A stretch of 64,000 bases of DNA from Euzebyales bacterium. GTDB taxonomy: Bacteria; Actinomycetota; Nitriliruptoria; Euzebyales; JAHELV01. Below are positions 1 through 41,391 of this stretch, one piece after another. Positions within the stretch are counted from its first letter, which is position 1. Each line of letters starts with the position of its first letter. A program made the translations under genes and the position numbers. Location: assembly GCA_035461305.1 (NCBI GenBank), contig DATHVN010000163.1, forward strand, positions 5,840 to 69,839. The letters run 5' to 3'. A model generated the notes under the pieces. The model was given only the letters and a program-made list of their open reading frames with translations, was not told the DNA's origin and did no database searches.

Positions 1-557
1 TCGTCGTCGGCTCGGGGATGAAGTGGTTCGGCGGCCGGCTCCTGGGAAGCGTCAGCACAGGCCTGCTGCACACGGCGCGGACGTCGGTGCTCGTCGTGCA
101 CACCGCGCCGTCCGGGGTCCCCGGACCGGTGGTCGTCGGCGTCGACGGGTCCGACCACGCGGCCAGGGCGCTCGACGTCGCGACGGCGTTCCTCGACCCG
201 GAGCGCTGCGCCGTCACGGTGGTGTCCGCGGCAAAGCTGATGGCGCCCGCGCTCATGCCGCCCTACACGGGCTATGCCACGGTCGCGCCGTCACCCGAGA
301 TCGAGGCCGAGGTGCTCGCACCGTCACGGGAGCACGCGGACCGGGCGGCCGCGCTGCTGCGCGGGCGCGGCTTCGCCGCGGAGACGGCAGTGATGCTCGG
401 CCACCCCGTGAAGCGGTTGCTCGCCGAGGTCGACGACGTCGGTGCGGCGCTGGTCGTCGTCGGGTCGCGTGGCCTCGACGCGCTCGACCGCGCGGCGGTC
501 GGCTCGGTCAGCGACCAGGTCGTGCGGTACGCCCCGGCGACGCTCGTCGGGCGGTAG
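1..557 (+). CDS. universal stress protein (UspA family), N-terminus outside window
   Basis: The frame of ORF 18..557 stays open to the window edge; VVGSGMKWFGGRLLGSVS is the end of a first USP domain. The second domain (VVVGVDGS...VVVGSRGLDALDRAAVGSVSDQVV) carries the USP G-x2-G-x9-GS nucleotide-binding signature. Confidence 0.85.
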   Translation, partial: VVGSGMKWFGGRLLGSVSTGLLHTARTSVLVVHTAPSGVPGPVVVGVDGSDHAARALDVATAFLDPERCAVTVVSAAKLMAPALMPPYTGYATVAPSPEIEAEVLAPSREHADRAAALLRGRGFAAETAVMLGHPVKRLLAEVDDVGAALVVVGSRGLDALDRAAVGSVSDQVVRYAPATLVGR

Positions 558-567
558 GCGTCCACGC

Positions 568-1470
568 CTACCGGTGGTGGGGCACGGCGACCATCGGGCC
601 GGCGGCGTGATGCGCGCACTGGTGGCTGACCGAGCCGGGCCCGAGCTCTGCGAAGCCGCGGCGTCCCCGAGTTCCGACGACCAGCAGGTGCTCGGCGGTC
701 GCGTAGCGTTGCAGCGCGGCCACGGGCGCTCCGTCGTCGATGACGCGGTCCATGCGCGCGTCGCCGCCGACGGGCTCGGCCCGGTGGAGCAGCGCGTCGA
801 TCTCGTCGCGCGCGGCGGCGCGGGCCTCGGCGAGCCGTGCCGCGACAAGCTCCACCGGCAGGCCGAGCACACGCAGCGTCGCGGGATCGGGCAGGTCGAG
901 CCCGTGCACGGCGAGCATACCCACGCCGCGGCGGCACGCCTCGTCGACCGCCCAGCGCAGGGCGGTCTCCGACTCCGGCGATGCGTCGACACCGACCACG
1001 ACGGGTCGCCGTCCGTCCCGCTCCTCCCCGGTCGACGCCGGCTCGGACGTCGTCGAGCGGATCAGCGCGACCGGCACGGCCGCATGGGTCAGCACGCGAT
1101 GGCTCGTCGAGCCCAGCAGCAGCTCGCTGAACCCGCCGAGCCCACGGGTGCCGACGACGATCAGCTGGCTGTGCCGGCCCGCGTCGAGGAGGGCGTCGGC
1201 GGCGTGGGACGCGCGGATCACGACAGTGTCGTGGTCCGGCAGCCGCTCGAGCAGCGCACGGTGCCGCGCGACGACGTCGTGCACCAGCCGCCGCGCGAGC
1301 TCCTCGGCGGCGAACGTCGACGCGGACGTGACGCCGTCGTCGACGTACCCGTGCACCAGGGTGAGCGTCACGTTGCGCAGCTGTGCCTCGCGCACGGCCC
1401 AGCGCAGCGCGCGCTCCGAGTGCGCGGATCCGTCGATGCCCACGACGATCGGGGTCGTGACGTCCTGCAT
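568..1470 (-). CDS. tandem-domain universal stress protein
   Basis: Two USP domains are present (IVVGIDGS...VVGTRGLGGFSELLLGSTSHRVL and VVVGVDAS...VVGTRGRRGFAELGPGSVSHQC). Start placed at ATG 1470 (MQDVTTPIVVGIDGS); the extension to 1587 is Arg-rich and not protein-like. Confidence 0.9.
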   Translation of the reverse strand: MQDVTTPIVVGIDGSAHSERALRWAVREAQLRNVTLTLVHGYVDDGVTSASTFAAEELARRLVHDVVARHRALLERLPDHDTVVIRASHAADALLDAGRHSQLIVVGTRGLGGFSELLLGSTSHRVLTHAAVPVALIRSTTSEPASTGEERDGRRPVVVGVDASPESETALRWAVDEACRRGVGMLAVHGLDLPDPATLRVLGLPVELVAARLAEARAAARDEIDALLHRAEPVGGDARMDRVIDDGAPVAALQRYATAEHLLVVGTRGRRGFAELGPGSVSHQCAHHAAGPMVAVPHHR

Positions 1471-1691
1471 GGCGCTCCCGTCTCGAGCGTCGACGGTGAC
1501 GAGGCGCACGCTACGGCGGTCACGGACGTGTGCGCGGGTCGACGGCCCCGCCGCCCACCGACGATGGTCCCGGTCCGCCGGGGACACGGGCCGAAGGACT
1601 CATCGGTTGCGGGCCGTTGGCAGGGTCGCGCTGCGCCGGCCGGGACTACGGTCACCCTCGGGGACCTGATCGGTGTCGAGGAGTGTGCATC

Positions 1692-2837
1692 ATGAAGCAC
1701 TGGGTCATCGCATACCGCCACGTCCCAGGCGCCCCCGCCGCCCTGCGCCGGCGGCTGGTCACCGATGTGGCCGACATGCTGCGCACCGCGATGGACGGCG
1801 ATGACGGACAGGTCGAGCCCGACGGATCGTTGCTCCTGCAGCTGCCCGCCCACGTAGCCGGCGTCGACATGCACAAGCAGGTCAGGGTGCGGACCGGCGT
1901 CGCGTCGGACCATGGAGCCCGCACGTGCATCCCGCTGCAGTGGGAGGCCGAGCCGGGCCGGCACGCCTTCCCCGTGTTCACGGGCACGATCGAGCTCGAG
2001 CCGATGTCGTCGCGGATGGCCCAGCTGACCGTCGTCGGTGCGGTCACGCCGCCGCTCGGGCCGGTCGGCGGCCTCGCGGAAGCCACCGTCCTCGGAGCGC
2101 TCGCCGAGCGCACCACCCAGGACCTGGCCGACCGCCTCGCGGAAGCGCTGGTCGAGGGTCGGGAGGAGCCGGCGGCCAAAGCGGCGACCGGCGGGCCAGC
2201 GGCACAGCTGACGGTCGCCGACATCATGACCGTCAATCCGCTCGTCCTGCACGTCGACACGCCGGTGCGCACGGCCGCGCTGCTGCTGTTCTACTTCGAC
2301 GTGGCAGGCGCGCCCGTCCGCACCGACGACGGCGGCCTGGTCGGGGTGCTCAGCGAGTCGGACCTGCTCGCCGTGCAGGCCACGCCGAGGCTGGGGCTCG
2401 GCGGGCGCGCGGAGGACAGCCGCGTCCGGCACCGCGCCCGCACCGTCGGGGAGGCCTGCAGCCGTCCCGCGCACGTCGTCGCGCCCGACGCGACGGTCTC
2501 CGAGGCGGCAGCGATGCTGTGGGACGCCGACATCGGCCGTCTGATCGTCGTGTCCGGGGCGGAGGTCGTCGGCGTCGTGTCCCGCCACGACGTGCTGCGT
2601 GCGCTGCTGCGCGACGACGCCGAGACCCAGGCCGCCCTCGACGAGCTGCTGCGCGCACGTGACGACGACGTGATCGTCCAGGTCGAGTGGGGCGTCGCCA
2701 CGCTCATGGGCGTGGTGACCTACCACAGCACCGCTCGCCGGCTGGCCCAGATGGTGCGGGAGGTCGACGGCGTCGTCGACGTCGACTCCCAGGTCGACTG
2801 GAAGATCGACGACCTGGTCCCGCCCGTCCTGCCCTGA
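1692..2837 (+). CDS. CBS-pair domain protein with C-terminal BON domain and uncharacterised N-terminal domain
   Basis: Start MKHWVIAY at 1692 is preceded by GAGGAG. Two CBS motifs are present (VADIMTVNPLVLHVDTP...VGVLSESDLL and ACSRPAHVVAPDATVSEAA...VGVVSRHDVL). The BON-like tail reads VQVEWGVATLMGVVTYHSTARRLAQMVREVDGVVDVDSQV. Confidence 0.85.
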   Translation: MKHWVIAYRHVPGAPAALRRRLVTDVADMLRTAMDGDDGQVEPDGSLLLQLPAHVAGVDMHKQVRVRTGVASDHGARTCIPLQWEAEPGRHAFPVFTGTIELEPMSSRMAQLTVVGAVTPPLGPVGGLAEATVLGALAERTTQDLADRLAEALVEGREEPAAKAATGGPAAQLTVADIMTVNPLVLHVDTPVRTAALLLFYFDVAGAPVRTDDGGLVGVLSESDLLAVQATPRLGLGGRAEDSRVRHRARTVGEACSRPAHVVAPDATVSEAAAMLWDADIGRLIVVSGAEVVGVVSRHDVLRALLRDDAETQAALDELLRARDDDVIVQVEWGVATLMGVVTYHSTARRLAQMVREVDGVVDVDSQVDWKIDDLVPPVLP

Positions 2838-2869: not shown

Positions 2870-5434
2870 TCAACTGCGCTGCCACCGCTTGTCCAGCGCG
2901 TCGACGGCGACCACCACCGGCGCGGCGAGCAGCGCGACCGTCCACCCGGTTGCGTCGGGTGGTGCGTGGCCGAGCGCGTCGGCCACGACCGGCACGAACA
3001 GGAACACGGCGGTGATCGCCAGCTCGATCACGACCGCCACGAGCAGCAGCCGGTTGCCGCCCCAGTCGAGCGCGCCGACCCAGCGGGTATCGCTGCGGCA
3101 GGCGAAGGCGTTCGCGGTCTGGCCGATGACCACCGCGGCGAACGTCGCGCCGGACGCGGCGAGCTGCGTGGCGCCCGCGGGGAACGCCATGCCCGGCCGC
3201 CAGCCCGCGGCGACCATGGTGGCGACGAAGGCGCACATGCCCATCAACGCCTCGGACGGGCCGAGCACGCCGAAGCCGCGGCGGGCGACCCTCGCGTCGA
3301 GCAGCCGCCCGCTCGCCGGCGCCGACCGCAGCGTGTTCCGCGTGGGTGGCTCCGCCCCGAGGGCCACGGCCGACAGCGTGTCGGTCCCGATGTCGAGCGC
3401 GAGCACCTGCAGGACACCGAGCGCCAGCGGGAACCGTCCACCAGACAGTGCCCACACGACGAACGGCGTCAGCTCCGCGACGTTGTCGGACAGGTGGTAG
3501 GCCAGGAACCGCCGGATGTTGGCGAACGTCGCCCGGCCGTACTCGATGGCGGCGACGATCGTCGCAAAGTCGTCGTCGAGCAGCACGAGGTCGGCGGCCT
3601 CGCGGGCCACGTCGGTGCCCGACCGGCCCATCGCCACGCCAATGTCGGCCGCGTGCAGCGCCGGACCATCGTTGACGCCGTCGCCGGTCATGGCGACCAC
3701 GTGGTCCCGCCGCTGGAGCGCCGCGGCGATGTGCAGCTTGTCCTCGGGCGCCACCCGGGCGACGACGACCCCGTCGCGATCGACCAGTGCGCCGATGTGC
3801 TCGAGGTCGGAGGGCAGGTCGTCCGATGTCAGCACCGGCGCGTCGGCGTCCGCGAGGCCGACTTCGCGCGCGATCGCCAGCGCTGTGGCGGGGTGGTCGC
3901 CCGTGACCATCGCCACCTTCACGCCCGCCTTTCGGCACGCAGCGACGGCGGCAGCGGCTGCCGGCCTCGGCGGGTCCTCGAGGCCGACCAGGCCCAGCAG
4001 CTCGAGGTGGCGTTCGGCCTCGTCGGCGGTGGCGGCGCGGTCGTCCTCCCAGCGCCGTCGGGCGATCGCCAGGACGCGCAGGCCGCGTGTGGTGAAGCGG
4101 GCGAGCGCGGCGTCCGCCGCGCTGGTCTCGCCAGCGCAGCGCGGCAGCACCGCGTCGGGCGCGCCCTTGACGTACAGCGTCCCGTCGACGACCACCGACA
4201 TCCGGCGACGTCGCGCATCGAAGGGGAAGCGTCGGGTCGGCGGTGAGATCGTCCCGGCGCCGTCGCCGGAGACCCGCCGCGCGAGGGCGTCGAGTGCCGC
4301 CTCCATCGGATCGCCCTGCGCGATCCAGCGGTCGGCGTCACGCACGACCCGGCCCGACGAGCAGCGGACCCCCGCCAGGGCCAGCGCACGCACGGCCGTC
4401 ATGGCGGCGTCAGAGTCGGTGTCGACGGTGCCGGTCGGCTCGTAGCCGGCCCCGCTGACGCGCGCCGCCCCGGCCGCCGTCCATGCCTCCACCACCTGCA
4501 TCTCGTTGCGGGTCAGCGTGCCGGTCTTGTCGGTGCACACGAACGTCGTCGACCCCAGGGTCTCGACGGCGTCGAGGCGGCGGACCAGCGCGTTGCGTCG
4601 TGCCATGCGCTGGGCGCCGATCGCGAGCGACAGCGTCACCGTCGGCAGCAGCCCCTCCGGCACGAGCGCGACGGTCACCCCGATCGCAAACACGACGGCC
4701 TCTGTCGCAGCCGTGCCGACCAGCATTGACACGAGGAAGAACGCGACGCCGACGCCGACCGCGATGGTCGCGATGGTCCGCACCACGCGGTGCAGCTCGC
4801 GCGTCAGGGGGCTGGGCGGGCGGGGCCCGGTCTGGGTGAGCGTGGCGATCTCCGCAAGCCGGGTGTCGCCGCCCGTGGCGGTCACCACCGCCTCGGCTTC
4901 GCCCTCCGTCACGAACGTCCCTGCGAACAGCGGATCTCCGGCGGAGACGTGTGTGGGGACGCTCTCTCCTGTGAGGGTCGACGTGTCGACCGACAGCGCA
5001 TGTGCCGAGGTCGTGGCCAGGTCCGCCGAGATCCGGTCGCCGGCTTCGAGGACGACCACGTCGTCCGGGACGAGCTCGGCGGCATCGATCTGCCGTCGCC
5101 TGCCGCCGCGGATGACGGTGACCTGCCGGGGCAGCAGCTCCCGCAGCCGCTCGGCCGCGCGGTCCGCCCGGTGCTCCTCGACGAACGCGAACACGGCGTT
5201 GACGACCACGACGATCACGATTGCCACCCCGAGCTGTGGCAGGCCGGCCACGAACGCGAACGCCGCGGCGATCCACAGCATCAGGGCGAAGAAGTGGATC
5301 AGCTGGTCGACCAGCCGCCGCCAGGCCGGCGTCGCCGGTGCCCGCGGCAGGACGTTGGGTCCGTGGTCCGCCAGAAGCGCGCCGGCCTCGGCCTCGGTCA
5401 GGCCTGACGGCGGGGACATGTCGACGGCGGGCAT
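2870..5434 (-). CDS. P2-type cation-transporting P-type ATPase (CtpF/Ca2+-ATPase-like)
   Basis: Motifs TGES, PEGLLPT, CTDKTGTLT and TGDGVNDGPAL are present. Start placed at MPAVDMSPPSGLTEAEA (5434; alternative 5419). The 381-codon upstream extension of track ORF 2870..6577 is antisense to the hydrogenase gene and was rejected. Confidence 0.9.
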   Translation of the reverse strand: MPAVDMSPPSGLTEAEAGALLADHGPNVLPRAPATPAWRRLVDQLIHFFALMLWIAAAFAFVAGLPQLGVAIVIVVVVNAVFAFVEEHRADRAAERLRELLPRQVTVIRGGRRRQIDAAELVPDDVVVLEAGDRISADLATTSAHALSVDTSTLTGESVPTHVSAGDPLFAGTFVTEGEAEAVVTATGGDTRLAEIATLTQTGPRPPSPLTRELHRVVRTIATIAVGVGVAFFLVSMLVGTAATEAVVFAIGVTVALVPEGLLPTVTLSLAIGAQRMARRNALVRRLDAVETLGSTTFVCTDKTGTLTRNEMQVVEAWTAAGAARVSGAGYEPTGTVDTDSDAAMTAVRALALAGVRCSSGRVVRDADRWIAQGDPMEAALDALARRVSGDGAGTISPPTRRFPFDARRRRMSVVVDGTLYVKGAPDAVLPRCAGETSAADAALARFTTRGLRVLAIARRRWEDDRAATADEAERHLELLGLVGLEDPPRPAAAAAVAACRKAGVKVAMVTGDHPATALAIAREVGLADADAPVLTSDDLPSDLEHIGALVDRDGVVVARVAPEDKLHIAAALQRRDHVVAMTGDGVNDGPALHAADIGVAMGRSGTDVAREAADLVLLDDDFATIVAAIEYGRATFANIRRFLAYHLSDNVAELTPFVVWALSGGRFPLALGVLQVLALDIGTDTLSAVALGAEPPTRNTLRSAPASGRLLDARVARRGFGVLGPSEALMGMCAFVATMVAAGWRPGMAFPAGATQLAASGATFAAVVIGQTANAFACRSDTRWVGALDWGGNRLLLVAVVIELAITAVFLFVPVVADALGHAPPDATGWTVALLAAPVVVAVDALDKRWQRS

Positions 5435-5596
5435 GCGACCACTGTGTAGCGTCGAGAGGCGACCGCCGCCAGTGTGGGCGCGGACCCGTCGGAGGCGAGG
5501 GCCGAAAGCCCCGCAGGTTGCGGGCCGCCAGCCCGTGGCCATGACGTCGTCGGCGCGGCACCGTGTGGCGACCGCTCTCGGGGAAGGCGACGTGCG

Positions 5597-6730
5597 ATGG
5601 TCGACGTGATGGATGCGGCAGCACTCGCGGACCTGCTGGACGGGCTCGGACGGCAGGGCTACACGGTCGTCGGCCCCACCGTCGGGGACGGCGCGATCGT
5701 CTACGACGAGCTCGACTCCGTCGACGACCTGCCACGTGGCTGGACCGACGAACAGGCACCCGGGCACTACCGGTTGGCGCAGCGTGACGATGACGCGCTG
5801 TTCGGCTACGCGGTCGGTCCCCACTCGTGGAAGCGGTACCTGCTGCCGTCGACCCACACGGTGTGGTCGGCCGAGCGGACCGACGACGGCGGTCTGCGGG
5901 TCCTCGACGAGCCGACGCCGGCGCCGCGCTACGCCTTCGTGGGCGTGCGCTCGTGCGAGCTGGCGGCCATCGCCGTCCAGGATCGCGTGTTCATCCAGGG
6001 CCCCGCGGTCGACACCGTGTATGCACGACGGCGTGACGAGGTGCTGTTGATCGCGGTGAACTGCGGGGATCCCGCGGGCACCTGCTTCTGCGTGTCGATG
6101 GGCACCGGACCGCGTGCGACCGGTGGCTTCGACCTGGCGCTGACGGAGGTGCTCGACGACGACGGCCACCGGTTCGTGGTCGAGGTCGGCACCGACGCCG
6201 GCAGGGCCGCGCTCGACGCCGCCGCGCACCGGCCGGCCACTGCCGACGACGCCGCAGCGGCGCACGCGGTGACCGACCGTGCGGCGCAGCGCATGGGACG
6301 CGTCATGGACACGACCGCCATCAAGGAGCTGCTGTACGGCAACCTCGAGCACCCACGATGGGACGACGTCGCCAGCCGCTGCCTGGCGTGTGGCAACTGC
6401 ACGATGGCCTGCCCCACGTGCTTCTGCACGAGCGTGACCGACGTGACCGACCTTTCGGGCGAGCACGTCGAACGGCATCGTGACTGGGACTCGTGCTTCA
6501 CGCTGGACTTCACGTGGACCGCCGGCACGTCGGTCCGCTCCACGACCAGATCGCGCTACCGGCAGTGGATGACGCACAAGCTCGCGACCTGGATCGACCA
6601 GTTCGGCACATCGGGCTGCGTCGGCTGTGGGCGCTGCATCACGTGGTGCCCGGTCGGCATCGACATCACCGAGGAGGTCGCGGCGATCCGGGCCGACGAC
6701 CCCATCGAGGACGCGGAGGACCTGCCGTGA
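5597..6730 (+). CDS. hydrogenase-associated 4Fe-4S subunit (sulfhydrogenase beta / AsrA-like)
   Basis: Start MVDVMDAA at 5597 follows GGGAAGG. Cys clusters [16 protein letters not shown] and [12 protein letters not shown] are present. It is the first gene of a translationally coupled hydrogenase operon. Confidence 0.85.
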
Positions 6731-7194
6731 ACACCGCCCACATGCTCGCTCTGCACCCGTTCGTCGCCGGGCTGAGCAACGAGCAGCTCGTCGCGCTGTC
6801 GGGATGTGCGACGCCGGTGCGGTTCGATCCGGGGGACGTGATCTTCCGCGAAGGCGACCCCGCGGACGCGTGCTACCTGGTGCGGGCGGGCCACGTCGCG
6901 CTGCAGCTGCACGCCCCGGACGGACCGCTGGTCATCGAGACGCTCGTCGGTGAGCACGTGCTCGGCTGGTCGTGGCTGGTGGCACCGCACCGCTGGCGCT
7001 TCGACGCGGTGGCGGTCGACGAGGTCGACACGATCCACCTCGACGCGGCGTGCGTCCGCGGGCTCATGCGCGACGACCCGCAGCTGGGCTCCGCCGTGGC
7101 GCAGCAGTTGCTGGCCGTGGTCGGCGACCGTCTGGAGCACACGCGGGTCAGGCTGCTCGACGTCTACGGACACCACCATGCGCGCAGCATCTGA
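6727..7194 (+). CDS. cyclic-nucleotide-binding-domain protein (stand-alone CNB fold, divergent phosphate-binding cassette)
   Basis: The GTG start overlaps the upstream stop (GTGA at 6727-6730). CNB-like strands include [27 protein letters not shown]...[10 protein letters not shown]. There is no DNA-binding HTH after the domain. Confidence 0.75.
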
Positions 7195-8044
7195 CCAGCT
7201 GCTCGCACCGGCGCTCACGCCGCAGCTCGCGCGGCTCGAGCGCACCGTCCGCGAGACCGCCGACACCGTCACCCTCCACGTGCGTGCGCTCGACGCGGAG
7301 TGGTCGCCGTTCGCGCCCGGCCAGTTCGACATGCTCACCGCGTTCGGCGTCGGCGAGGTGCCGATCTCGGTCAGCGGCGACCCCAACGACCGGGTCATGC
7401 GCCAGTACACGATCCGCGCGGTGGGTGCGGTGACGCGGGCCCTGACCGCTCTCGGCCCGGGTGCGCACCTGGGCGTGCGCGGTCCCTACGGCACGCCGTG
7501 GCCGGTCGACGTCGCGGTGAACACCGACGTGCTCGTCGTCGCCGGCGGCCTGGGGTTGGCTCCGCTGCGTCCCGCGATCCACCACCTGCTCGCGCACCGT
7601 GACCGCTACCGGCGCGTCACCATCCTGTACGGCGCGCGGACGCCCGACGACATGCTGTTCGTCGACGAGGTGGTCCAGTGGCGCGGTCGCTTCGACGTCG
7701 ACGTGGCGGTGACGGTCGACGCCCCGAGCCCGCCACCCACGGCCACCGCGCCCTGGCGGGGGCACGTCGGGCTGGTGACCACGCTGATCCGTCCGGCGAT
7801 GGGCGATCCGGACCGCACGACGGCCCTGGTCTGCGGTCCCGAGATCATGATGCGCTTCACCGTCCGCGCGCTCGCGGACCACGGCATCGTCAGTGACAGG
7901 ATCCACGTGTCGCTGGAGCGCTCGATGGACTGCGGCGTCGGCCTGTGTGGTCACTGCCAGCTCGGCCCGTTCTTCGTCTGCGTCGACGGTCCCGTCATGT
8001 CCCAGCGCCGCGTCGGCCCGTGGCTGGTGGTGAGGGAGCTGTGA
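7178..8044 (+). CDS. FAD/NAD(P)-binding oxidoreductase with C-terminal 2Fe-2S (sulfhydrogenase gamma / AsrB-like)
   Basis: Motifs RQYTIRA (FAD), [13 protein letters not shown] (NAD(P)) and the C-terminal [12 protein letters not shown] cluster are present. It overlaps the upstream gene by 17 nt. Confidence 0.9.
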
Positions 8045-8832
8045 GCACCGTGACCGATCGTCCGACGCTGGCCGTGTGGAAGTTCGCGTCATGTGACGGG
8101 TGCCAGCTGCAGGTCCTCAGCCTCGCCGACCGCCTGCTCACCCTGACCGAGCGCGTTGACGTCGCCATGTTCCTGGAGGCCACGCGGAGCCAGGTCGCCG
8201 GCCCTTACGACGTGTCGCTGGTCGAGGGCTCGATCACCACGCCGGACGACGCGCGGCGCATCAGGGAGATCCGCGCGCAGTCCCGGTACCTGGTCACCAT
8301 CGGCGCGTGCGCGACGTCCGGCGGCATCCAGGCGTTGCGCAACCTCGTCGACGTCAGCGACTGGACGTCCCTCGTCTACGCCAACCCCGAGTACGTCGAC
8401 ACGTTGGCGACGTCGACGGGCATCGCCGATCACGTCGCCGTCGACTTCGAGCTGCGGGGGTGCCCGATCTCGATCACCCAGCTCGCGGAGGTCGTCGCGG
8501 CCCTGCTCGACGGGCGGCGGCCCGCCGTCGCCGCGTCAAGCGTGTGCGGGGAGTGCAAGCGCCGTGGCAACGTCTGCGTGATGGTCGCGCACGGCACCCC
8601 GTGCCTGGGACCCATCACCCAGGCCGGGTGCGGCGCGCTCTGCCCGACCTACGACCGCGGCTGCTACGGCTGCTTCGGCCCAGCTGAGACTGCGAACACC
8701 GCATCCCTGATGGACTGGTGGGGCGACGTGTTGGGCGTCGGCGCCGGCGAGCGGGTCCGGATGCTGCGGACGTTCAACGCCAACGCGCCGGAGTTTCGCG
8801 AGGCTGCCGCGGCGCAGGAGGATGCCACATGA
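8041..8832 (+). CDS. [NiFe]-hydrogenase small (delta) subunit, group 3 type
   Basis: GTGA start/stop overlap at 8041. Motifs [16 protein letters not shown] and GCP are present, plus the distal Cys cluster [11 protein letters not shown]...[27 protein letters not shown]. Confidence 0.9.
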
Positions 8833-10133
8833 CCCACCAGGAGGGTTGGAGCCGGACGCTGTCTGTCGAGGCGCTGGCCCGCGTCGAGGGTGAGGGCGCC
8901 ATGCGCGTCCGCGTCCACGACGGGCAGGTCACCGATGTGCAGCTGCGGATCTACGAGCCCCCGCGGTTCTTCGAGGCCCTTCTCCGCGGCCGCTCGTGGA
9001 CCGAGCCGCCCGACATCACTGCGAGGATCTGCGGCATCTGCCCGATCGCGTACCAGATGAGCGCCTGCCAGGCCCTCGAGGACGCGTGTGGTGTGACCGT
9101 CGACGCACCGTTGCAGGATCTGCGGCGCCTGCTGTACTGCGGCGAGTGGATCTCCAGCCACGCCCTCCACGTCTACCTGCTGCACGCGCCCGACTTCCTC
9201 GGGTACGAGAGCGCGATCGAGATGGCCGCCGAGCATCGGGTCGTGGTCGAGCGCGGACTGCGGCTGCGCAAGGCGGGCACCGACCTGCTCACGCTGGTGG
9301 GTGGTCGCGAGAGCCACCCGGTCAACGTCCGGGTGGGCGGCTTCTACCGGGCACCGACCCGTCGCGAGCTGGCGTCGCTGCGTCCGCGGCTCGAGCAGGC
9401 CCGCGACGACGCGTTCGAGACCGTCCGCCTGGTCGCGGGCTTCGACGTCCCGGACTTCACCCAGGACGTGGTGCTGGTCGCGCTGTCGGATCCGGACCGC
9501 TACGCGATCGAGCGCGGCCGGCTCGCCTCGACCGCCGGGCTCGACGCCCCGGTCGCGGCGTTCAGCGAGCACGTCACCGAGCACCACGTCGCCCACTCGA
9601 ACGCGCTCCACGCCGAGCTCGACGGCGGGACCACCTTCGCGGTCGGGCCCATGGCGCGGTTCGCGCTGAACTTCGACCGGCTGTCGCCGGTCGCGCTGGA
9701 GGCCGCCGCTCTGGCCGACATCGGCCCCGACTGCCGCAACCCGTTCCGCAGCATCGTCGTGCGCAGCATCGAGACGCTCTACGCTATCGACGAGGCGCTG
9801 CGCCTGATCGACGGCTACGAGCGGCCGGAGCGTCCGTTCGTCCCGATCGTGCCCCGGGCGGCGACGGGCCACGGCGCGACCGAGGCGCCGCGCGGGACCC
9901 TGTACCACCGCTACACCATCGGGGACGACGGCCTGCTGACCGACGGCGTGATCGTGCCGCCGACCTCGCAGAACCAGCGGTCGATCGAGGAGGACCTCGC
10001 GCGGTTCGTGCAGGCACGGCTGGACATGGACGACGACGCGCTGCAGTGGGCGTGCGAGCAGGCGATCCGCAACTACGACCCGTGCATCTCGTGCGCGACG
10101 CACTTCCTGGACCTCACCATCGAGCGCACGTGA
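8829..10133 (+). CDS. [NiFe]-hydrogenase large (alpha) subunit, group 3b-like
   Basis: ATGA overlap at 8829. The N-terminal Ni-binding motif RICGICP and the C-terminal DPCISCATH are present, followed by a 9-residue tail typical of protease-processed large subunits. Confidence 0.92.
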
Positions 10134-10588
10134 CCGCGCGGGTGTTCGGCCTCGGCCACCCCGACCGTGGTGACGACGCCGTCGGGCTGCTGGTCGCCGA
10201 CGACGTCCGGCGGCGGGCGCCCCTGGGGGTGGAGGTCCGTCGGCTCGAGGGGTCGCCACTGGAGCTGCTGACGTCGTGGGACGACGCCGACGACGTGATC
10301 GTCGTCGACGCCGTGCGGGCCCCGACAGCACCGGGGCTGGTCCGGCGCTTCGACGTCCTCGCGGGTCAATTGCCGGTGATGGGGTCGACGGGCGGCACGC
10401 ACGACGCGTCGCTGATCGACGCCATCGAGCTGGCGCGTGCGCTCGGACGGCTGCCGGCAGGCCTCGTGGTCTACGGCGTGTACGGCGCCAGCTTCGGCGT
10501 CGGTGACGCGATGACCCCGGCCGTGCGGGACGCCGCCCAGGCCCTGGGCGAGCGCATCGCGGGTGAGGTCGTGCCGCGCCGCGGGTGA
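10130..10588 (+). CDS. hydrogenase maturation endopeptidase (HycI/HoxW family)
   Basis: GTGA overlap at 10130. The N-terminus [15 protein letters not shown] and the later GGTHDASL are typical of the family. Confidence 0.85.
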
Positions 10589-10601
10589 CCGGTCCGGGCC
10601 G

Positions 10602-10826
10602 TCAGGTGACCGCCGTGTCCCCCGGGAGCGTGTCCGCGGGGCGCGGGGCGATCTTGATGTCGATGCCGCCGAACATGACCAAGCGCGCGCACGCGCAGCG
10701 TCGCGGCGGGGTCGCGCGCAGCAGGTCCGGTTCGATGCCTTCGAAGACGGCGGTGAGCGATCCACCGCTGGACTCCGGCGAGTTGTTCATCAGCTCATTG
10801 CCCGAGAACAACACGGTCACGCTCAC
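10602..10826 (-). CDS. small hypothetical protein; start uncertain
   Basis: About 90% G/C at third codon positions, strongly coding-like. It lies directly downstream of, and co-oriented with, the PRT-DLH gene. The frame is open upstream to at least 10919, with no ATG/GTG/TTG before GTG 10826. Confidence 0.45.
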   Translation of the reverse strand: MSVTVLFSGNELMNNSPESSGGSLTAVFEGIEPDLLRATPPRRCACARLVMFGGIDIKIAPRPADTLPGDTAVT

Positions 10827-10909
10827 GTCGTCGCCGCTGTCGACCGCCGACCGTCGGACGCGGCGCCCGGTGATGCACCACGGGTCGGCATCGGTCTCCC
10901 GTTCCTCGA

Positions 10910-12304
10910 TCAGGCCCCACTGGCCGGCGGCCTGTTGGACACCGCCGGTTCGGACCGCGCGGGATCGCCCGTCCCGTCGGCAGGCGACAGGTGGGTGGTG
11001 AACCAGTCTTTCGCCAGCTCGGCGACACGTTCGAGCGCACCGGGTTCGCTGAACAGGTGGGTGGCGCCGGGCACGACCTCGAGCCGGCTGCCGTGCCCGA
11101 GCTGCGTCAGTGCGCTCGTGTTCAGGTCGAGGACCGGTTCGTCACGACCACCCACGATCAGGAGGGTGGGCGCCTCCACCTGACCGAGCGTCCGCGCCAG
11201 GTCGGGACGGCCACCGCGCGACACGACCGCCGCGACCGCGGGACGCCAGGCGGCCGCGACCAGTGCCGCAGCGGCGCCGGTGCTCGCGCCGAAGTAGCCG
11301 ACCGGTAGTCCCGCGGCCTCCGGTTGCGACTCGAGCCACCGGGTCGCAGTGTCGAGGCGGTTCGCGAGCAACCCGATGTCGAAGACGTTGTTGCGGTCCG
11401 CCGCCTCGTTGGCGTCGAGCAGGTCGAACAGCAGGGTCGCGAGACCGGCGGCGTTGAGCGTCCGAGCGACGGCGGTGTTGCGTGGGCTCTGCCGGCTGCT
11501 GCCGCTACCGTGCGCGAACACCACCATCCCGATCGGATCGGGTGGGACCGACAGGGTGCCGGGCAACCGGGTCCCGTCAGCGGGGATGCGCACGTCACGC
11601 GTCTGGTGCCGCCGCGGGGTCCCGGACGACTCCGCTGCGGCGTGGCCCGAGCCATGGCGGGCCAGCAGGGCCGCCACCTCGTCGTCGCCGACCTGCGTGA
11701 AGTCGGCGTACCACCGGCCGATCGCCATGAAGTGCGTCGGTGTGCGCAGGCAGACCACCTCGTCGGCGCGGTCCCGCATGGCGTCAACGGTCTCCGATGG
11801 TGCCACGGGCACGGCCAGCACGACCTTGGCGGGGTGGCGGGCGCGCACGATGTCGAGGGCGGCGCGCGCCGTGAAGCCGGTCGCCAACCCGTCGTCGACC
11901 ACGATGGCCGTGCGGCCCTCGACCGGCGCCGCCGGCCGGTCTCCCCGGTAGCGGCGGGCACGCCGGTCCACCTCGGCCTGCTCGGTGGCCGTGACGCGCG
12001 CCAACTCCTCCTCGGTGATGCCGAGGCTGGCGATCAGGGGATCGTTGCGGACCTCGAGCCCACCTTGGGCGATGGCACCGATCCCCAGCTCCGGGTGCTG
12101 CGGCCAGCCGAGCTTGCGGACGATGAGCACGTCGAGCGGTGCGTCGAGCCGTGCGGCCACCTCGGCGGCGACGGGCACGCCACCACGTGGGAGGGCGATG
12201 ACGACGGGATGCTCGTAGTCGCGTCGTGCCAGCGCGGCCGCGAGCTGACGCCCGGCGTCCCGCCTGTCGTCGAACCGTCTGGTGTCTGGCGATCGTCTCC
12301 GCAT
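10910..12304 (-). CDS. phosphoribosyltransferase - dienelactone hydrolase (alpha/beta hydrolase) fusion protein (Rv0571c-type architecture)
   Basis: The N-terminal PRT domain has LPRGGVPVA and the PRPP loop VVDDGLATG. The C-terminal hydrolase has FAHGSGSS and the nucleophile elbow GASTGA. Start at MRRRSPDT (12304). Confidence 0.9.
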   Translation of the reverse strand: MRRRSPDTRRFDDRRDAGRQLAAALARRDYEHPVVIALPRGGVPVAAEVAARLDAPLDVLIVRKLGWPQHPELGIGAIAQGGLEVRNDPLIASLGITEEELARVTATEQAEVDRRARRYRGDRPAAPVEGRTAIVVDDGLATGFTARAALDIVRARHPAKVVLAVPVAPSETVDAMRDRADEVVCLRTPTHFMAIGRWYADFTQVGDDEVAALLARHGSGHAAAESSGTPRRHQTRDVRIPADGTRLPGTLSVPPDPIGMVVFAHGSGSSRQSPRNTAVARTLNAAGLATLLFDLLDANEAADRNNVFDIGLLANRLDTATRWLESQPEAAGLPVGYFGASTGAAAALVAAAWRPAVAAVVSRGGRPDLARTLGQVEAPTLLIVGGRDEPVLDLNTSALTQLGHGSRLEVVPGATHLFSEPGALERVAELAKDWFTTHLSPADGTGDPARSEPAVSNRPPASGA

Positions 12305-12642
12305 GGTGGCGGCTCCCAACGCAACCTGTATCCCAGGGGCGCGCCGTCCACCCGGCCGCCGCGCCCGGATGAGCACCTGCCAGGATCGTGTCCGGCGCAT
12401 GCCGGGCCAGAGCCGAACGTCCCGCCGATTCGCGCCATCCGTCGTCGCTGGCGCTCCGTCGGGTCGACCGGCCCTGCCGCGGGCGGCCTCTGGACCGGTA
12501 TGCGTCCCGTCCGGTGTCCACGTTTCCTGCACGTGTGGGTCGTGCGCCGGCAGCCCGCGTGGGACCTTCCGCCGCATGTGCAAGGACGAGTGGACTGCAT
12601 ATGGCCCGGCGGTGACGTGACGCTGGGGCGCATGCACTGACC

Positions 12643-14994
12643 TTGTCGGCGGACATGCCCGGGACCCGCAACACCGTGATGCTTGTGGTGAGCTTCCTCG
12701 CCGTCGTGGCGGGGGGCGTCGCCGCGCTCGCGGGAGCCCGTGCTGTCGCCGATCTCGTATGGGCGGGCGCGACCGCCGCCGTCGCCATCCAGCTCGTCGT
12801 CGACATCATCGCGGACCTGGTGCGTCGCCGCGCCGGCGTGGACGTGATCGCGCTGCTGGCCATGGCGGGTGCGCTGGCGCTGGGACAGTACCTGGCCGGC
12901 GCCGTGATCGCGGTCATGCTGACCGGGGGGCAGGCGCTGGAGGCGCACGCCGCGGGCCGGGCGCGCCGTGAGCTGGCCGCACTGCTGGAAGGTGCGCCCA
13001 GGGCGGCGCACCGGCTGCTCGACGACCGTGTCGAGACCGTCGAGGTCGATGCCGTCGAACGCGGAGAGCTGCTCCTGGTGCGGTCGGGCGAAGCCGTCCC
13101 GGTCGACGCCGTCGTGGTCGACACCATCGGGTTGTTCGACGAGTCCGCGCTGACCGGTGAGACGCGCCCGGTGCGGCGCCGCGAGCACGCGCGCGTCGGC
13201 AGCGGCGCGATCAACGCCGGTGGGCCTGTCCGCGTGCGCGCGGTCAGCACGGCAGCGGACAGCACCTACGCGGGCATCGTCCGGCTCGTGCGTGAGGCGG
13301 CGGACGCCAGGACGACGTTCACGCGGATGGCCGACCGTTACGCGCTTGCGTTCGTGCCCGCGACACTGGTAGTGGCGGCCGGGGCGTGGATCGTGTCCGG
13401 TGACCCGGTGCGGGCGCTCGCGGTGCTGGTCGTGGCGACACCCTGTCCGCTGATCCTCGCCGCACCGATCGCGCTCGTCTCCGGCGTCTCGGTCGCGGCG
13501 CGACGTGGGATCATCGTCAAGGGCGCGTCCGCGCTCGAGCAGCTGGCGGAAGCGACGTCCGTGGTGTTCGACAAGACGGGCACGCTGACCGCCGGCGCCC
13601 CGCGGGTCGCCGAGGTCGTCGCTGTGCCCGGGACGGATCGCGACGAGGTGCTGCGGCTCGCCGCGAGCGTCGAGCAGGCCTCGTCGCACGTCTTCGCTGA
13701 CGCGATCATCGACGCCGCGCGTGACCGGGGTCTCCGGCTCACCTTCCCCGTGGAGGTCGTCGAGGATCCCGGGGTCGGGATCGCAGGGCAGGTCGACGGA
13801 GGCCGCGTCCGTCTCGGTTCGGCGGCGTGGGTCGCGGGCGGCTCGGCGGTGCCCGCGGCGGTCGAGGTCGCACAGCGCCGGGCGCGGCTGGAGGGCTCGT
13901 CGGCCGTCCTGGTCTCTGTCGACGACACGCCCCAGGGGGCGCTGCTCCTCGACGATCCGCTCCGTCCGGAGTCCGGCCGCGTCGTGCGCTCGCTGCGGGC
14001 GGCGGGGGTCGGCCACGTCGGCATGCTGACCGGTGATGATCGCGCTGTCGCCGAGGTGGTCGCCAGCGCCCTCGGACTCGACGACGTCCGACCCGAGCTG
14101 AGCCCGAGCGACAAGATCGTCGCGATCCAGGATGGCCAGGACCGCGGGCGGGGGCTGACGGTGATGGTCGGCGACGGTGTCAATGACGCTCCCGCCCTGG
14201 CCGGCGCCGACCTCGGCGTCGCCATGGGCGCTCGTGGCGCGTCCGCCTCGTCGGAGGCGGCGGACATCGTGATCACGGTCGACCGACTCGATCGGCTCAC
14301 CGAGGGGATGGCGATCGCCCGCTGGTCGCGGCACATCGCCACCCAGAGCGTCGTGGCTGGCATGGGGCTGTCGCTGGTGGCGATGGGCTTCGCGGCGGCG
14401 GGGAGCATCGCGCCACTCGCCGGGGCCGTCCTGCAGGAGGTCATCGATGTGGCGGTCATCCTCAACGCGCTGCGGGCGTTGCGGCCGCCCGGCACCAGTC
14501 GCGTGACGGCCTCGGACCGCCGCTCCAGCGCGCTGTTCCGGAACGAGCACCGCACCCTGCTGGCCGGGGTCGACGACGTCAAGGGCGTCGCCGACCGGCT
14601 CGAGTGGACGACCGCCGACCACGCGCGGCGGGACCTCGACGACGTTCGTTGCTTCCTCACCGACCGGCTGCTGCCGCACGAGCAGGCCGAGGAGCGGCAG
14701 CTCTACCCACGTCTGGCGTCCGTCAGCGATGGCAGGGATCCGACGGAGCCGCTGATCGGCGCACACCGGGAGATCGAGCGGATCGTCGCGCTGTTCGAGC
14801 GCCTGGCCACCAACCTGCCCGCCGACGGTCCCGGACCGGGCGACCGCCTCGAGCTGCGCCGCCTGCTGTACGGGTTGCACGCGATCCTGCGCCTGCATTT
14901 CGCGCAGGAGGAGGAGCTGTACCTGGGCCTGGACGACGGGACGGTCGCCGTGCCGGCGAACAGCACGGGCGCGCGACCGTCCGCCCGCCGCTGA
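12643..14994 (+). CDS. P1B-5-type heavy-metal P-type ATPase with C-terminal hemerythrin-like domain
   Basis: The TM motif is TPCP, with FDKTGTLT and GDGVNDAP also present and no N-terminal CxxC metal-binding domain. The C-terminal ~150 aa carry hemerythrin H/E ligand motifs (NEHR, HEQAEE, HREIE, HFAQEEE). The track start is TTG 12643; ATG 12655 is an alternative. Confidence 0.9.
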   Translation: MSADMPGTRNTVMLVVSFLAVVAGGVAALAGARAVADLVWAGATAAVAIQLVVDIIADLVRRRAGVDVIALLAMAGALALGQYLAGAVIAVMLTGGQALEAHAAGRARRELAALLEGAPRAAHRLLDDRVETVEVDAVERGELLLVRSGEAVPVDAVVVDTIGLFDESALTGETRPVRRREHARVGSGAINAGGPVRVRAVSTAADSTYAGIVRLVREAADARTTFTRMADRYALAFVPATLVVAAGAWIVSGDPVRALAVLVVATPCPLILAAPIALVSGVSVAARRGIIVKGASALEQLAEATSVVFDKTGTLTAGAPRVAEVVAVPGTDRDEVLRLAASVEQASSHVFADAIIDAARDRGLRLTFPVEVVEDPGVGIAGQVDGGRVRLGSAAWVAGGSAVPAAVEVAQRRARLEGSSAVLVSVDDTPQGALLLDDPLRPESGRVVRSLRAAGVGHVGMLTGDDRAVAEVVASALGLDDVRPELSPSDKIVAIQDGQDRGRGLTVMVGDGVNDAPALAGADLGVAMGARGASASSEAADIVITVDRLDRLTEGMAIARWSRHIATQSVVAGMGLSLVAMGFAAAGSIAPLAGAVLQEVIDVAVILNALRALRPPGTSRVTASDRRSSALFRNEHRTLLAGVDDVKGVADRLEWTTADHARRDLDDVRCFLTDRLLPHEQAEERQLYPRLASVSDGRDPTEPLIGAHREIERIVALFERLATNLPADGPGPGDRLELRRLLYGLHAILRLHFAQEEELYLGLDDGTVAVPANSTGARPSARR

Positions 14995-16593: not shown

Positions 16594-16682
16594 CCGTCCG
16601 CCTCCCGCTGTTGGCGCGACATGTGCGGAATCGGTCCGATCAACGTCGCAGTAGCGTGGCCACAGCGACGAAGGGACATCCA

Positions 16683-17633
16683 ATGGACGTCATACTGATC
16701 GTCATCGTCGTGGTCGGCATCCTCCTGGTTGCCGCTGTGCTGTACGTGATCCCGCTCGGGTTGTGGATCACCGCGCTGTTCGCCGGCGTGCGGATCAGCA
16801 TTGGCCGGCTCGTCGGCATGCGGTTGCGCAAGGTCGTGCCGGGCCAGATCATCCGCCCGTACATCAGTGCGGCCAAGGCTGGCCTCGACCTTGAGATCCC
16901 CCAGATGGAGGCGCACTATCTCGCCGGCGGCCAGGTCGGTCGCGTCGTGCAGGCGCTGATCTCAGCCGACCGGGCCAACATCGAGCTGTCATGGCGAAGG
17001 GCGACGGCGATCGACCTCGCAGGACGCAACGTGCTCGAGGCCGTGCAGGTGAGTGTGACCCCCAAGGTGATCGAGACCCCCCGGGTGGCAGCGGTAGCCA
17101 AGGACGGCATCCAGGTCGTGGCGGTCGCACGCGTCACGGTGCGCGCCAACATCGACCGCCTCGTCGGAGGCGCGGGTGAGGAGACGATCATCGCCCGGGT
17201 CGGAGAGGGCACGGTCTCGTCGATCGGCTCGTCGGAGACCCACAAGAAGGTGCTCGAGAACCCCGACAACATCTCCCGGTACGTGCTCGAACGGGGGCTC
17301 GACTCCGGCACAGCGTTCGAGATCCTGTCGATCGACATCGCCGATGTCGACGTCGGCCGCAACATCGGTGCCGAGCTCCAGACCAATCAGGCGGAGGCAG
17401 ACAAGAAGATCGCGCAGGCCAAGGCCGAGGAACGCCGGGCGATGGCCGTCGCGAAGGAGCAGGAGATGCGCGCCAAGGTCGTCGAGGCCGAGGCGCAGGT
17501 GCCGCAGGCCATCGCCGAGGCGTTCCGCCAGGGCAACCTCGGTGTGATGGACTATCGCCAGCTCCAGAACGTCGAGGCCGACACAAGGATGCGGTCGTCG
17601 CTGGCCGATGGCCGGGACGACGCTGGTGTCTGA
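16683..17633 (+). CDS. floA: flotillin-like protein FloA (YqfA/UPF0365 family)
   Basis: An N-terminal hairpin ([19 protein letters not shown]) is followed by an SPFH-type body and a C-terminal EA-rich coiled region ([37 protein letters not shown]). It is adjacent to nfeD, as in yqeZ-yqfA. Confidence 0.9.
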
Positions 17634-19821: not shown

Positions 19822-20292
19822 TCACAGGTACGGCTGCGTGGCACGCGACGTCGACCGGTCGTCGGCGCGCTGCGTTGCCAGCCGCATCTCCTCGAGCTGA
19901 TGCTGCGCCGTGAGCTGCTGGCTCCACAGCGTCGCGTGCACCCCCTGCATCAGGCCCTCGAGCCACCCCGTCAGCTGTGCCTGCGCGACGCGCAGCTCCC
20001 CCTGGGTGGGGACCTCGGTGTCGAGCTCGGGCAGCAGGGCACCAAGCTCGTCGGCGAGCTGCGGGCCGACGGCGTCGCGCAGGACGGCGACCGACCGCGC
20101 GTAGATGTCACGGAAGCGGGCACGGGCACGCTCGTCCAGCTCGGTCCCGTGCAGCTCCTGCAGCAGGATACGGGCCATCCATGCCAGCCGCAGCGCCGTG
20201 AACGGTGAGATCTCGTCGCCGCGTGCGTCCTCGGGCTGCGCCTCCGGCACGCCGGAGCGCGGCACGATCACGTGGTCGGACGTCTCGTTCAT
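19822..20292 (-). CDS. bpa: bacterial proteasome activator Bpa/PafE
   Basis: The segment ELRVAQAQLTGWLEGLMQGVHATLWSQQLTAQHQLEEMR matches the conserved Bpa helix of mycobacterial Rv3780. The C-terminus ends in PYL (penultimate Tyr, as in GQYL). Confidence 0.85.
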   Translation of the reverse strand: MNETSDHVIVPRSGVPEAQPEDARGDEISPFTALRLAWMARILLQELHGTELDERARARFRDIYARSVAVLRDAVGPQLADELGALLPELDTEVPTQGELRVAQAQLTGWLEGLMQGVHATLWSQQLTAQHQLEEMRLATQRADDRSTSRATQPYL

Positions 20293-25555: not shown

Positions 25556-25669
25556 CACCCGTACGGCGACGACACGGACGGGATGCCGACGGATACCGGG
25601 CCGTTGGGCCCTGTTTGTGTGCGCAGCGCAGGGCAGTGTTGGGTGGGCCCAGCGGCGGAAAGGGGAGGC

Positions 25670-26758: not shown

Positions 26759-26877
26759 CACGGGTGCCGCGCGTACGGCGCGGCCAGCTTCGTGGCCGGT
26801 CCGACACGGTCGTCCGCCCCGGAAACGGCAGGCCGACGGTTCTGCGACGCCGCATGACGCCTTGCCTGGACACGCCG

Positions 26878-41149: not shown

Positions 41150-41359
41150 GTCGACGAGGCTGACCTGCTGGCCACCGTGGGGGTAGGAGGTGGGCAGACG
41201 GTCAGTGCGGGAGCCCTGACGACCGTCAGCCCGCCCGGACCGTGCTGTTCGAGGATGTCCGCGAGATCAGTCCTGCCGCGTCGTCACCGTGGTCACACCG
41301 GCCGAAGGCGACGACCGCGGTCGGTCCGTCCGTCGTGACGTCACTCCTCGCTCTGTGCA

Positions 41360-41391
41360 GCGGGATGCGGCGTCCGGTGATCGCATCCCGC
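41360..41391. promoter_or_regulatory. inverted repeat GCGGGATGCG-N12-CGCATCCCGC in a divergent promoter region
   Basis: Perfect 10-bp arms read from the sequence. It lies 150-180 nt upstream of USP start 41541. Confidence 0.35.

Follow-up and report, generated by a model that had tools for sequence, protein, structure and literature searches.

A Cyclic-Nucleotide-Binding-Fold Protein Encoded between the Diaphorase Genes of Group 3b-Type [NiFe]-Hydrogenase Operons: A Proposed Accessory Subunit

The DNA analyzed here is a 64 kb stretch from a Euzebyales bacterium (GenBank assembly GCA_035461305.1, contig DATHVN010000163.1), a genome with a GC content of 72%; the whole of this stretch is referred to as the window. 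It contains an operon for a [NiFe]-hydrogenase in which the gene for a small protein with a cyclic-nucleotide-binding (CNB) fold, termed the CNB protein, is embedded among the structural genes. The features of the window are listed in Table 1. Six open reading frames (ORFs) on the plus strand span positions 5597–10588, and reanalysis gave the same coordinates and the same five junctions as an initial annotation of this DNA. Consecutive genes are joined by GTGA at 6727, by an overlap of 17 nucleotides at 7178–7194, by GTGA at 8041, by ATGA at 8829, and by GTGA at 10130. Each of the six ORFs has one terminal stop. The GC content at third codon positions is 0.905–0.947 in the called frame of each gene, as expected for real coding sequence, and homologues align from residues 1–11 of every product, so that the chosen starts are sound. 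The GTG start of the CNB gene at 6727 aligns with Met1 of its family. Short start/stop overlaps are ordinary in high-GC operons and unremarkable alone; it is the gene content that matters.

The large subunit was compared with the chains of the PDB using phmmer. The sulfhydrogenase alpha subunits of Thermococcus kodakarensis and Pyrococcus furiosus (group 3b; 5yxy and 9nez) were matched with an E value of 5e-63, compared with 1e-45 for the group 3c Mvh enzyme, 4e-44 for the group 3d soluble hydrogenase (SH), and ~1e-33 or weaker for the group 3a Frh enzyme. The nickel motifs RICGICP (residues 66–72, nucleotides 9024–9044) and DPCISCATH (residues 417–425, nucleotides 10077–10103) are invariant across the alignment of the large subunit with its relatives. 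The best PDB match of the beta subunit is the beta chain of P. furiosus sulfhydrogenase 1 (SHI; 9nez_B, E 1.6e-36); its first ~110 residues do not align to HydB. For the gamma subunit, the best NCBIfam models are those for cytochrome-c3 hydrogenase gamma (E 2e-58), AsrB, and ShyC. With each of the four enzyme subunits, sulfhydrogenase (Hyd/Shy) models rank at or near the top of the NCBIfam matches. Every equivalog cut-off was missed by a wide margin, which points to a distant lineage. The initial annotation had assigned the enzyme to group 3b, and this assignment is upheld by the nearest PDB alpha chain, the Hyd/Shy models, and the AsrA/AsrB-like beta/gamma module; judged by these comparisons, the operon is that of a cytosolic NAD(P)-linked group 3b [NiFe]-hydrogenase. 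The statement that hypABCDEF are absent was also confirmed, since no homologue was detected in the window by tblastn with HypA–HypF from Burkholderia and Cupriavidus. The proteins from the CNB gene (HSJ46035.1) and the large-subunit gene (HSJ46038.1) carry generic annotations at NCBI. Group 3b enzymes are among the most widespread hydrogenases in bacterial genomes and are thought to dump excess reductant as H2 in hypoxia. The textbook enzyme is the four-subunit HyhBGSL, known from the archaeal prototypes and from Mycobacterium smegmatis, both of which are without a CNB gene.

The sixth product had been described as a stand-alone CNB fold with no helix-turn-helix (HTH), and this description stands. 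The match to PF00027 has a score of 50 bits relative to a cut-off of 27.5 (E 3e-13). An AlphaFold2 (AF2) model was obtained with a predicted local distance difference test score (pLDDT) of 89.5 from an alignment of 121 sequences. The model consists of a barrel of eight strands together with an N-terminal helix, a short B-helix, and a C-helix of 37 residues that reaches the C-terminus. The C-helix corresponds to the dimerization helix of CRP-type proteins, and its end carries the conserved pattern RL..TR..LLD.YG, within which R135, L136, D145, and Y147 are conserved at 93–97%. The best matches of the model in Foldseek are 3mdp (a stand-alone CNB protein) and the sensor domains of Mycobacterium tuberculosis CRP and Corynebacterium glutamicum GlxR, with template modeling (TM) scores of 0.76–0.79. 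The latter two are the best solved relatives in sequence and structure (E ~2e-12, TM ~0.76). The sensor fold and the C-helix are common to the CNB protein and the CRP/FNR transcription factors, including these two and Escherichia coli CAP. The CRP/FNR proteins possess a C-terminal HTH and the Glu and Arg residues of the cassette, whereas the CNB protein is without an HTH and has Trp at both positions. No HTH was detected in the 155-residue protein by Pfam or in the AF2 model, which ends at the C-helix, nor was one found in the 121 aligned homologues. Homologues are 146–168 residues long, and the 121 aligned ones all have ~150–160 residues. When the CNB protein was used as the query against solved structures, no chain of any solved hydrogenase was matched, including those of 9nez, 9nf0, and 9e15.

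The phosphate-binding cassette had been called divergent on the basis of a 22-residue string. The string is present and the cassette is indeed non-canonical, but the register was wrong, because the GE of this string (residues 75–76) lies upstream of the cassette and is not the cassette Gly-Glu. In the HMMER alignment to GlxR (GE...PRTS), the cassette Gly-Glu corresponds to G80-W81 and the phosphate-binding Arg-Thr to W90-R91. The register of Gly-Glu at G80-W81 was confirmed using MAFFT with CAP (GELGLF) and HoxI (GELGFI), the latter a hydrogenase accessory protein considered below. Among 74 operon-derived CNB sequences the segment reads GWSWL-x-PP-Y-R-W-x-FDA-R-A, with G80 and P87 at 100%, W83 at 99%, W81 at 92%, and S82 and L84 at at least 92%; the corresponding values for W90, F92, D93, and A94 are 82%, 84%, 80%, and 93%, respectively. 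The residues G80-W81-S82-W83-L84 and P87 are invariant in the 121 database homologues. Arg89 is moderately conserved and is the sole Arg noted near the replaced contacts. In these alignments the apparent divergence is thus a strongly conserved family signature in which both hallmark contacts for a cyclic nucleoside monophosphate (cNMP) appear as Trp. Canonical binding of cAMP or cGMP is unlikely, because the positions of the ribose-binding Glu and the phosphate-binding Arg are both Trp in the family.

Three cysteines of the CNB protein are also conserved, C27 at 91–100%, C109 at 88%, and C114 at 89%. In the clade of the window, C114 is replaced by Met or Leu while F49 is replaced by Cys in 24 of 25 sequences. 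The pattern is C27/F49/C109/K113/C114 in most of the family and C27/C49/C109/L113/M-or-L114 in this clade, and the third cysteine may have been relocated there.

The initial annotation had made its proposal of a hydrogenase subunit depend on conservation of the insert in orthologous operons. An alignment of large subunits was used to search a single genome of each GTDB species, which provided 80 loci with large subunits 57–67% identical to that of the window. The presence of a CNB gene was scored by tblastn and with a hidden Markov model (HMM) of the family, 7 kb to either side; five of the loci were not evaluable, as they ran into a contig end or a masked stretch or had an orphan large subunit. 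The CNB gene is inside the cluster in 71 of the 75 evaluable loci (~95%), and it lies between the beta and gamma genes in all 67 loci with measurable junctions. The insert is conserved, and it is the norm for the clade rather than a peculiarity of the operon in the window. By label, the CNB-containing loci belong to more than 15 phylum-level groups, and the labels of metagenome-assembled genomes (MAGs) need caution; included are Actinomycetota, Acidobacteriota, Bacteroidota, Chloroflexota, Planctomycetota, Ignavibacteriota, Deinococcota, Dormibacteraeota, several proteobacterial classes, and one Bathyarchaeia MAG. The beta-to-CNB junction is an overlap in 42 of the 67 loci and is no longer than 25 nucleotides in 21 more, and for the CNB-to-gamma junction these numbers are 51 and 13. 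Pairwise identities of the CNB proteins correlate with those of the four enzyme subunits with r values of 0.57–0.70, compared with 0.65–0.77 among the subunits themselves. The CNB gene is co-inherited with the operon. The four evaluable loci without it are those of Paractinoplanes, a Mycobacterium MAG and its relative, and an Anaerolineae MAG. The nearest or second-nearest neighbors of these four, at 71–79% identity, possess the gene, and several independent losses would fit this distribution. In the operon of a Mycobacterium sp. MAG with a large subunit 61% identical to that of the window, no CNB gene was found by the family HMM within 7 kb on either side.

A similar association was found on plasmids, where a large subunit of this kind is accompanied by a CNB match in all 15 records that have one. 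The gene is within the operon in Burkholderia, Paraburkholderia, Pandoraea, Rhodococcus, and Streptomyces rimosus, and its position between the diaphorase genes was verified in Rhodococcus sp. DK17 and Burkholderia savannae. In four other Streptomyces plasmid records the CNB match is 9–18 kb from the operon. The gene persists through rearrangements as well. In Kribbella the beta, CNB, and gamma genes are divergent from the small-subunit, large-subunit, and protease genes, such that the CNB gene is kept together with those of the diaphorase, and in Pseudosporangium the CNB and large-subunit genes are divergent from the beta, gamma, and small-subunit genes, such that the CNB gene has moved yet is still in the cluster. 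In a Candidatus Brocadia MAG (locus L041, 3698–7001), the CNB-containing operon is normal except that its small- and large-subunit genes are ~3.3 kb apart. A Verrucomicrobiae MAG (locus L020, 7001–10445) has a large subunit that is 63% identical, with no small, beta, or gamma subunit gene within 7 kb; downstream on the opposite strand are two weaker CNB-like ORFs, one of which is fused to an acyltransferase domain (498 residues).

When 1.84 billion cluster representatives were searched with a profile, 885 were matched at E ≤ 1e-30, with multi-domain proteins among the top matches. Analysis of the latter with Pfam identified a CNB-gamma fusion of 468 residues, a beta-CNB fusion of 542 residues, and tandem CNB-CNB proteins. 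The 90% cluster of the CNB-gamma fusion has 11 members, 10 of them full length, from independent JGI and ENA contigs. There are two variants with many substitutions, some in the linker, and with length and reading frame unchanged, and the fused gene occupies the operon position between the beta and small-subunit genes. The CNB-gamma fusion is not an assembly error, given the 11-member cluster, the independent contigs, the variants of equal length, and the operon position. At locus L091, where this fusion is encoded at 6001–7407, the large-subunit gene was recovered by tblastn in two pieces, perhaps through a frameshift or assembly error. The beta-CNB fusion is found in two variants (L093, 2924–5110, and L094, 1739–3925) with a free CNB gene next downstream and the gamma gene after it. 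The free copy has a degenerate signature, GYCWL..PPYQCRFD. Two CNB domains would thereby be available per beta subunit, as a dimer would require. The linkers in the fusions span ~15 residues between the C-terminus of beta and the N-terminus of CNB, and ~25–40 residues between the C-terminus of CNB and the N-terminus of gamma. The fusions with each neighbor provide the strongest computational argument for contact of the CNB protein with the beta/gamma module. Other candidates were rejected. P0262, a 773-residue apparent beta-CNB-gamma protein, is a frameshift artifact with out-of-frame stretches and a partial Fer4_22 match. Read-through fusions at L030, L033, and L072 arose where high-scoring pairs from tblastn ran past a stop, and the translations contain normal genes of ~150 residues.

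The closest functional parallel is HoxI of Cupriavidus necator (Ralstonia eutropha) H16, a small CNB-fold protein (167 residues) without an HTH that is encoded in the operon of the group 3d SH. HoxI was reported to be a CNB-type homodimer bound to the HoxFU diaphorase as the site of NADPH activation, to be dispensable for core catalysis, and to be easily lost on purification (PMC3702609, PMC3189943). Conditions of 150 mM KCl and pH 8 lead to its loss. Orthology of the CNB protein with HoxI was considered and rejected, as the similarity is only at the domain level. HoxI encoded on pHG1 is 26% identical by BLASTP (E 4e-4), and alignment of HoxI with the CNB family using hhalign gave a probability of 94.6% with 16% identity over 128 columns. 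HoxI is not among the best 40 of the 95 plasmid records matched by the CNB search at E ≤ 1e-3. The cassette Gly-Glu is kept in HoxI (GELGFI), whereas the CNB family has GWSWL. The hoxI gene follows the protease gene and the CNB gene lies between the diaphorase genes. The partner of HoxI is the NuoF/NuoG-like HoxFU, while that proposed for the CNB protein is the AsrA/AsrB-like beta/gamma module. From these comparisons, the resemblance appears to be a functional analogy, and at most ancient homology, rather than family membership.

The four subunits of P. furiosus SHI and SHII and of the T. kodakarensis cytosolic hydrogenase are homologous to those of the window, with the same gene order except for the insert. 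The Hyd3 (Hyh) hydrogenase of M. smegmatis (msmeg_3931–3927) is of the same type and is encoded, as in the window, in the order beta, gamma, delta, alpha, protease. The CNB gene itself has been mentioned in passing in three papers, none of which addresses its distribution, signature, or fusions or describes an experiment on it. Francci3_4499 of Frankia casuarinae lies between the two diaphorase genes and was called a small transcriptional regulator (PMC11879354). In Rhodococcus equi 103S the 3b cluster comprises six ORFs, among them this gene (WP_013415449.1; PMC13332983), and in a methanotroph 3b cluster it was called HoxI (PMC12319191). No functional study of the CNB gene was found in the literature, where the operon is elsewhere routinely written hyhBGSL.

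The operon is flanked by two universal-stress-protein (USP) genes, a CBS-BON gene, a P-type ATPase gene, a gene for a phosphoribosyltransferase-hydrolase fusion, and a gene for a P-type ATPase with a hemerythrin tail. At a greater distance in the window are additional USP genes, a CBS-M50 protease gene, and a gene for a GAF-GAF-HisKA_3-HATPase kinase. Going by the mycobacterial DosR regulon, we take this neighborhood to resemble a hypoxia/dormancy island, and such an island and the role of M. smegmatis Hyd3 in hypoxia would fit one another. Hyd3 is hypoxia-induced and adjoins DosR-type clusters (PMC2799521); the window has USP, CBS, and DosS-like GAF-GAF kinase genes. No DosR box (GGGACN4GTCCC, with one mismatch at most) was found upstream of the operon, and the count for the window is 6, with 9.5 expected by chance. 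No DosR-like response regulator was found near the DosS-like kinase among the ORFs at 35.8–38.8 kb, and a scan of 5250–11000 for sigma-70 promoters and terminators provided nothing useful. A phosphoribosyltransferase (Pribosyltran) gene is also near the operon in the closest relative (L005, 9843–11213). In Streptomyces sp. NBC_01340 (L090), a P-type ATPase with a hemerythrin tail (25387–27723, minus strand) and a CBS-BON protein (23776–24453) are encoded near the hydrogenase operon; this co-location recurs across distant actinomycetes.

Table 1. Features of the window (coordinates in nucleotides of the window; residues numbered from the start of each protein)
Feature	Position	Strand	Details
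Beta subunit (HyhB/HydB-like, AsrA-like 4Fe-4S)	5597–6730	+	377 residues; Fer4_22 E 4e-32; best NCBIfam models sulfhyd_HydB, ShyB, AsrA
Stand-alone CNB-fold protein, proposed accessory subunit of the diaphorase module	6727–7194	+	155 residues; PF00027; HSJ46035.1
CNB codons 27, 49, 109, 114	6805–6807, 6871–6873, 7051–7053, 7066–7068	+	
Cassette-equivalent segment with family signature	6964–7014	+	Residues 80–96 of the CNB protein
Long C-terminal helix of the CNB protein	7078–7188	+	Residues 118–154; DSSP on the AF2 model
Gamma subunit (HyhG/HydG-like, AsrB-like FAD/NAD(P) and 2Fe-2S)	7178–8044	+	288 residues; NAD_binding_1, DHODB_Fe-S_bind
Small subunit (delta)	8041–8832	+	263 residues; Oxidored_q6 E 6e-22; best NCBIfam model ShyD/HydD
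[NiFe] large subunit (alpha)	8829–10133	+	434 residues; NiFeSe_Hases; ShyA E 7e-72, HydA E 2e-67; HSJ46038.1
Maturation endopeptidase	10130–10588	+	152 residues; HycI PF01750; TIGR00072 E 1.6e-25, over cut-off
Universal-stress-protein gene	18–557	+	
Universal-stress-protein gene	568–1587	-	
CBS-BON protein	1530–2837		
Phosphoribosyltransferase fused to alpha/beta (dienelactone-type) hydrolase	10910–12637	-	Convergent with the operon
P-type ATPase with C-terminal hemerythrin domain	12643–14994	+	
Flotillin-like FloA	16611–17633	+	Downstream; ordinary actinobacterial gene, unrelated
Bacterial proteasome activator (Bpa)	19822–20292	-	Downstream; ordinary actinobacterial gene, unrelated
Universal-stress-protein gene	29719–30477	-	
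GAF-GAF-HisKA_3-HATPase kinase, DosS/DosT-like architecture	39121–40824	-	
Universal-stress-protein gene	41289–42443	+	

The initial annotation had favored a subunit of the hydrogenase over a transcription factor, and this has gained comparative support from the conservation in 71 of 75 loci, the persistence through rearrangements, and the CNB-gamma and beta-CNB fusions. The interpretation that we favor, with modest confidence, is that the CNB protein is an accessory and probably dimeric subunit, docked on beta/gamma, through which a signal other than canonical cAMP/cGMP would modulate the enzyme. As a fifth subunit of the group 3b hydrogenase, it would form a dimer through the long C-helix, dock on the diaphorase module, and modulate the enzyme by protein-protein contact with no binding to DNA. 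We infer that such an association and such regulation would also operate in the organism of the window. A small-molecule ligand, if there is any, would not be cAMP or cGMP bound in the canonical mode; by analogy with HoxI, our guess would be a ligand of the pyridine-nucleotide or nucleoside type.

Several observations weigh against this interpretation. The analogy with NADPH activation is weak, because the similarity to HoxI is only at the domain level. The solved archaeal SHI complexes contain no CNB chain, and M. smegmatis Hyd3 is, by annotation, without a CNB gene between beta and gamma (PMC2799521). In the 4 evaluable loci without the insert, the beta and gamma genes are adjacent and there is no CNB gene within 7 kb; one of the Streptomyces plasmid operons mentioned above likewise has the order beta-gamma-small-large-protease, with a CNB paralogue beside a CBS-BON gene. 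Since the archaeal prototypes, M. smegmatis Hyd3, and some operons are without it, the CNB protein is dispensable for catalysis. A docking surface was sought as subunit columns conserved at ≥93% in CNB-containing operons and changed in at least three of five CNB-less operons; none was found in the beta, gamma, or small subunit, and a single trivial L/V/M column was found in the large subunit. No protein-level evidence was found for any member of the family. Close paralogues with the same GWSW signature also occur outside hydrogenase loci. One orphan subclade with the motif PPYRYFGDARA is 47–49% identical to the CNB protein of the window, as are many operon-linked members. Its loci (L095, 5001–5978; L096, 5001–5522; L097, 6001–6973) have no hydrogenase nearby, and one of its clusters has 98 members; a CMD/AhpD-like gene is adjacent in two of the three loci and a CLC channel gene is near in all three. 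A Streptomyces fungicidicus paralogue is encoded beside narGHJI, together with CBS and PNPOx genes, and a protein with two CNB domains in tandem adjoins genes for resistance-nodulation-division (RND) efflux. Because the paralogues sit beside other partners, the fold is a portable module rather than an obligate hydrogenase subunit, and the sequences suggest that this module probably functions by protein-protein interaction with different partners.

One alternative is a structural or assembly subunit without a ligand or a signaling role, in which the Trp-rich cassette would fill or replace the pocket and the protein would only stabilize beta/gamma or chaperone the loading of FeS clusters and FAD. 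The bulky Trp residues at both key cNMP contacts and the near-invariance of the aromatic signature point in this direction, such invariance being expected equally of an interface and of a pocket; the fusions to beta or gamma demonstrate proximity and not regulation, and the protein is dispensable in some lineages. We nevertheless regard this role as unlikely, since the orphan paralogues beside unrelated genes fit a portable sensor better than a dedicated scaffold, and the full CNB architecture has been kept, including the hinge and the C-helix that transduce ligand signals in other members. A sensor of a different kind, for thiol redox state or O2, is distinctly improbable. The conserved cysteines (C27, C109, and C114, or C27, C49, and C109 in the clade of the window) would form a switchable disulfide or metal site, and their conservation, the exchange that looks like a relocated third cysteine, and the stress/hypoxia-type neighborhood are in its favor. 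The operon-linked CNB proteins of Planosporangium, Actinoallomurus, one Streptomyces, and a Nitriliruptoraceae MAG, together with the CNB-gamma fusion, are without most of these cysteines, so the site is not essential to the core function of the family.

Less probable again is a true receptor for cAMP, cGMP, or another cyclic nucleotide that couples a second messenger to hydrogenase activity. The PF00027 match is over the gathering score and the closest solved relatives, M. tuberculosis CRP and GlxR, bind cAMP, but the positions of the Glu and of the Arg-Thr/Ser are occupied by Trp81 and Trp90-Arg91, with the two Trp residues found in 92% and 82% of the family, respectively, and only the moderately conserved Arg89 is nearby. 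The lowest probability among the roles considered is given to control of operon transcription, which the protein, having no DNA-binding domain, would exert through partner switching that involves a DNA-binding protein or sigma factor. Such a role is suggested by the fold of the CRP/FNR sensor domain, by the label "CRP/FNR family transcriptional regulator" that annotation pipelines attach to many members, by the name given to the Frankia gene (PMC11879354), and by the orphan copies, one of which is near a sigma-70 region 4 protein. There is, however, no HTH in the protein or its 121 aligned homologues, no regulator gene is conserved beside the operons inspected, and neither overlapping codons within a set of structural genes nor fusions to beta and gamma are regulator-like.

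The CNB protein, favored here as an accessory subunit of the diaphorase module, is a HoxI-like case from another family, with another diaphorase and a rebuilt pocket; it has counterparts at other loci and is not entirely new. The family is a clear case of a CNB fold in which the cyclic-nucleotide contacts have been replaced wholesale. As a tentative extension, in which we place less confidence than in the accessory subunit itself, most bacterial group 3b hydrogenases may differ from the alpha-beta-gamma-delta tetramers of Thermococcales in being five-component enzymes, with a dimeric, Trp-lined CNB sensor on the diaphorase module. The non-cyclic ligand of this sensor would be a pyridine nucleotide, nucleoside, or redox signal, and the sensor would gate the flow of electrons between NAD(P)H and the [NiFe] site. 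The same family would control other small redox or stress proteins elsewhere, of the AhpD-like and CBS-BON kinds. If the CNB protein is a genuine sensor subunit, as suggested by its presence in nearly all loci of the clade and by the fusions to beta and gamma, the bacterial group 3b hydrogenases would be regulated post-translationally by a metabolite. Were these NADPH-linked enzymes expressed heterologously or applied in biotechnology with the fifth gene missing, the activities could then mislead, as with HoxI and the SH.

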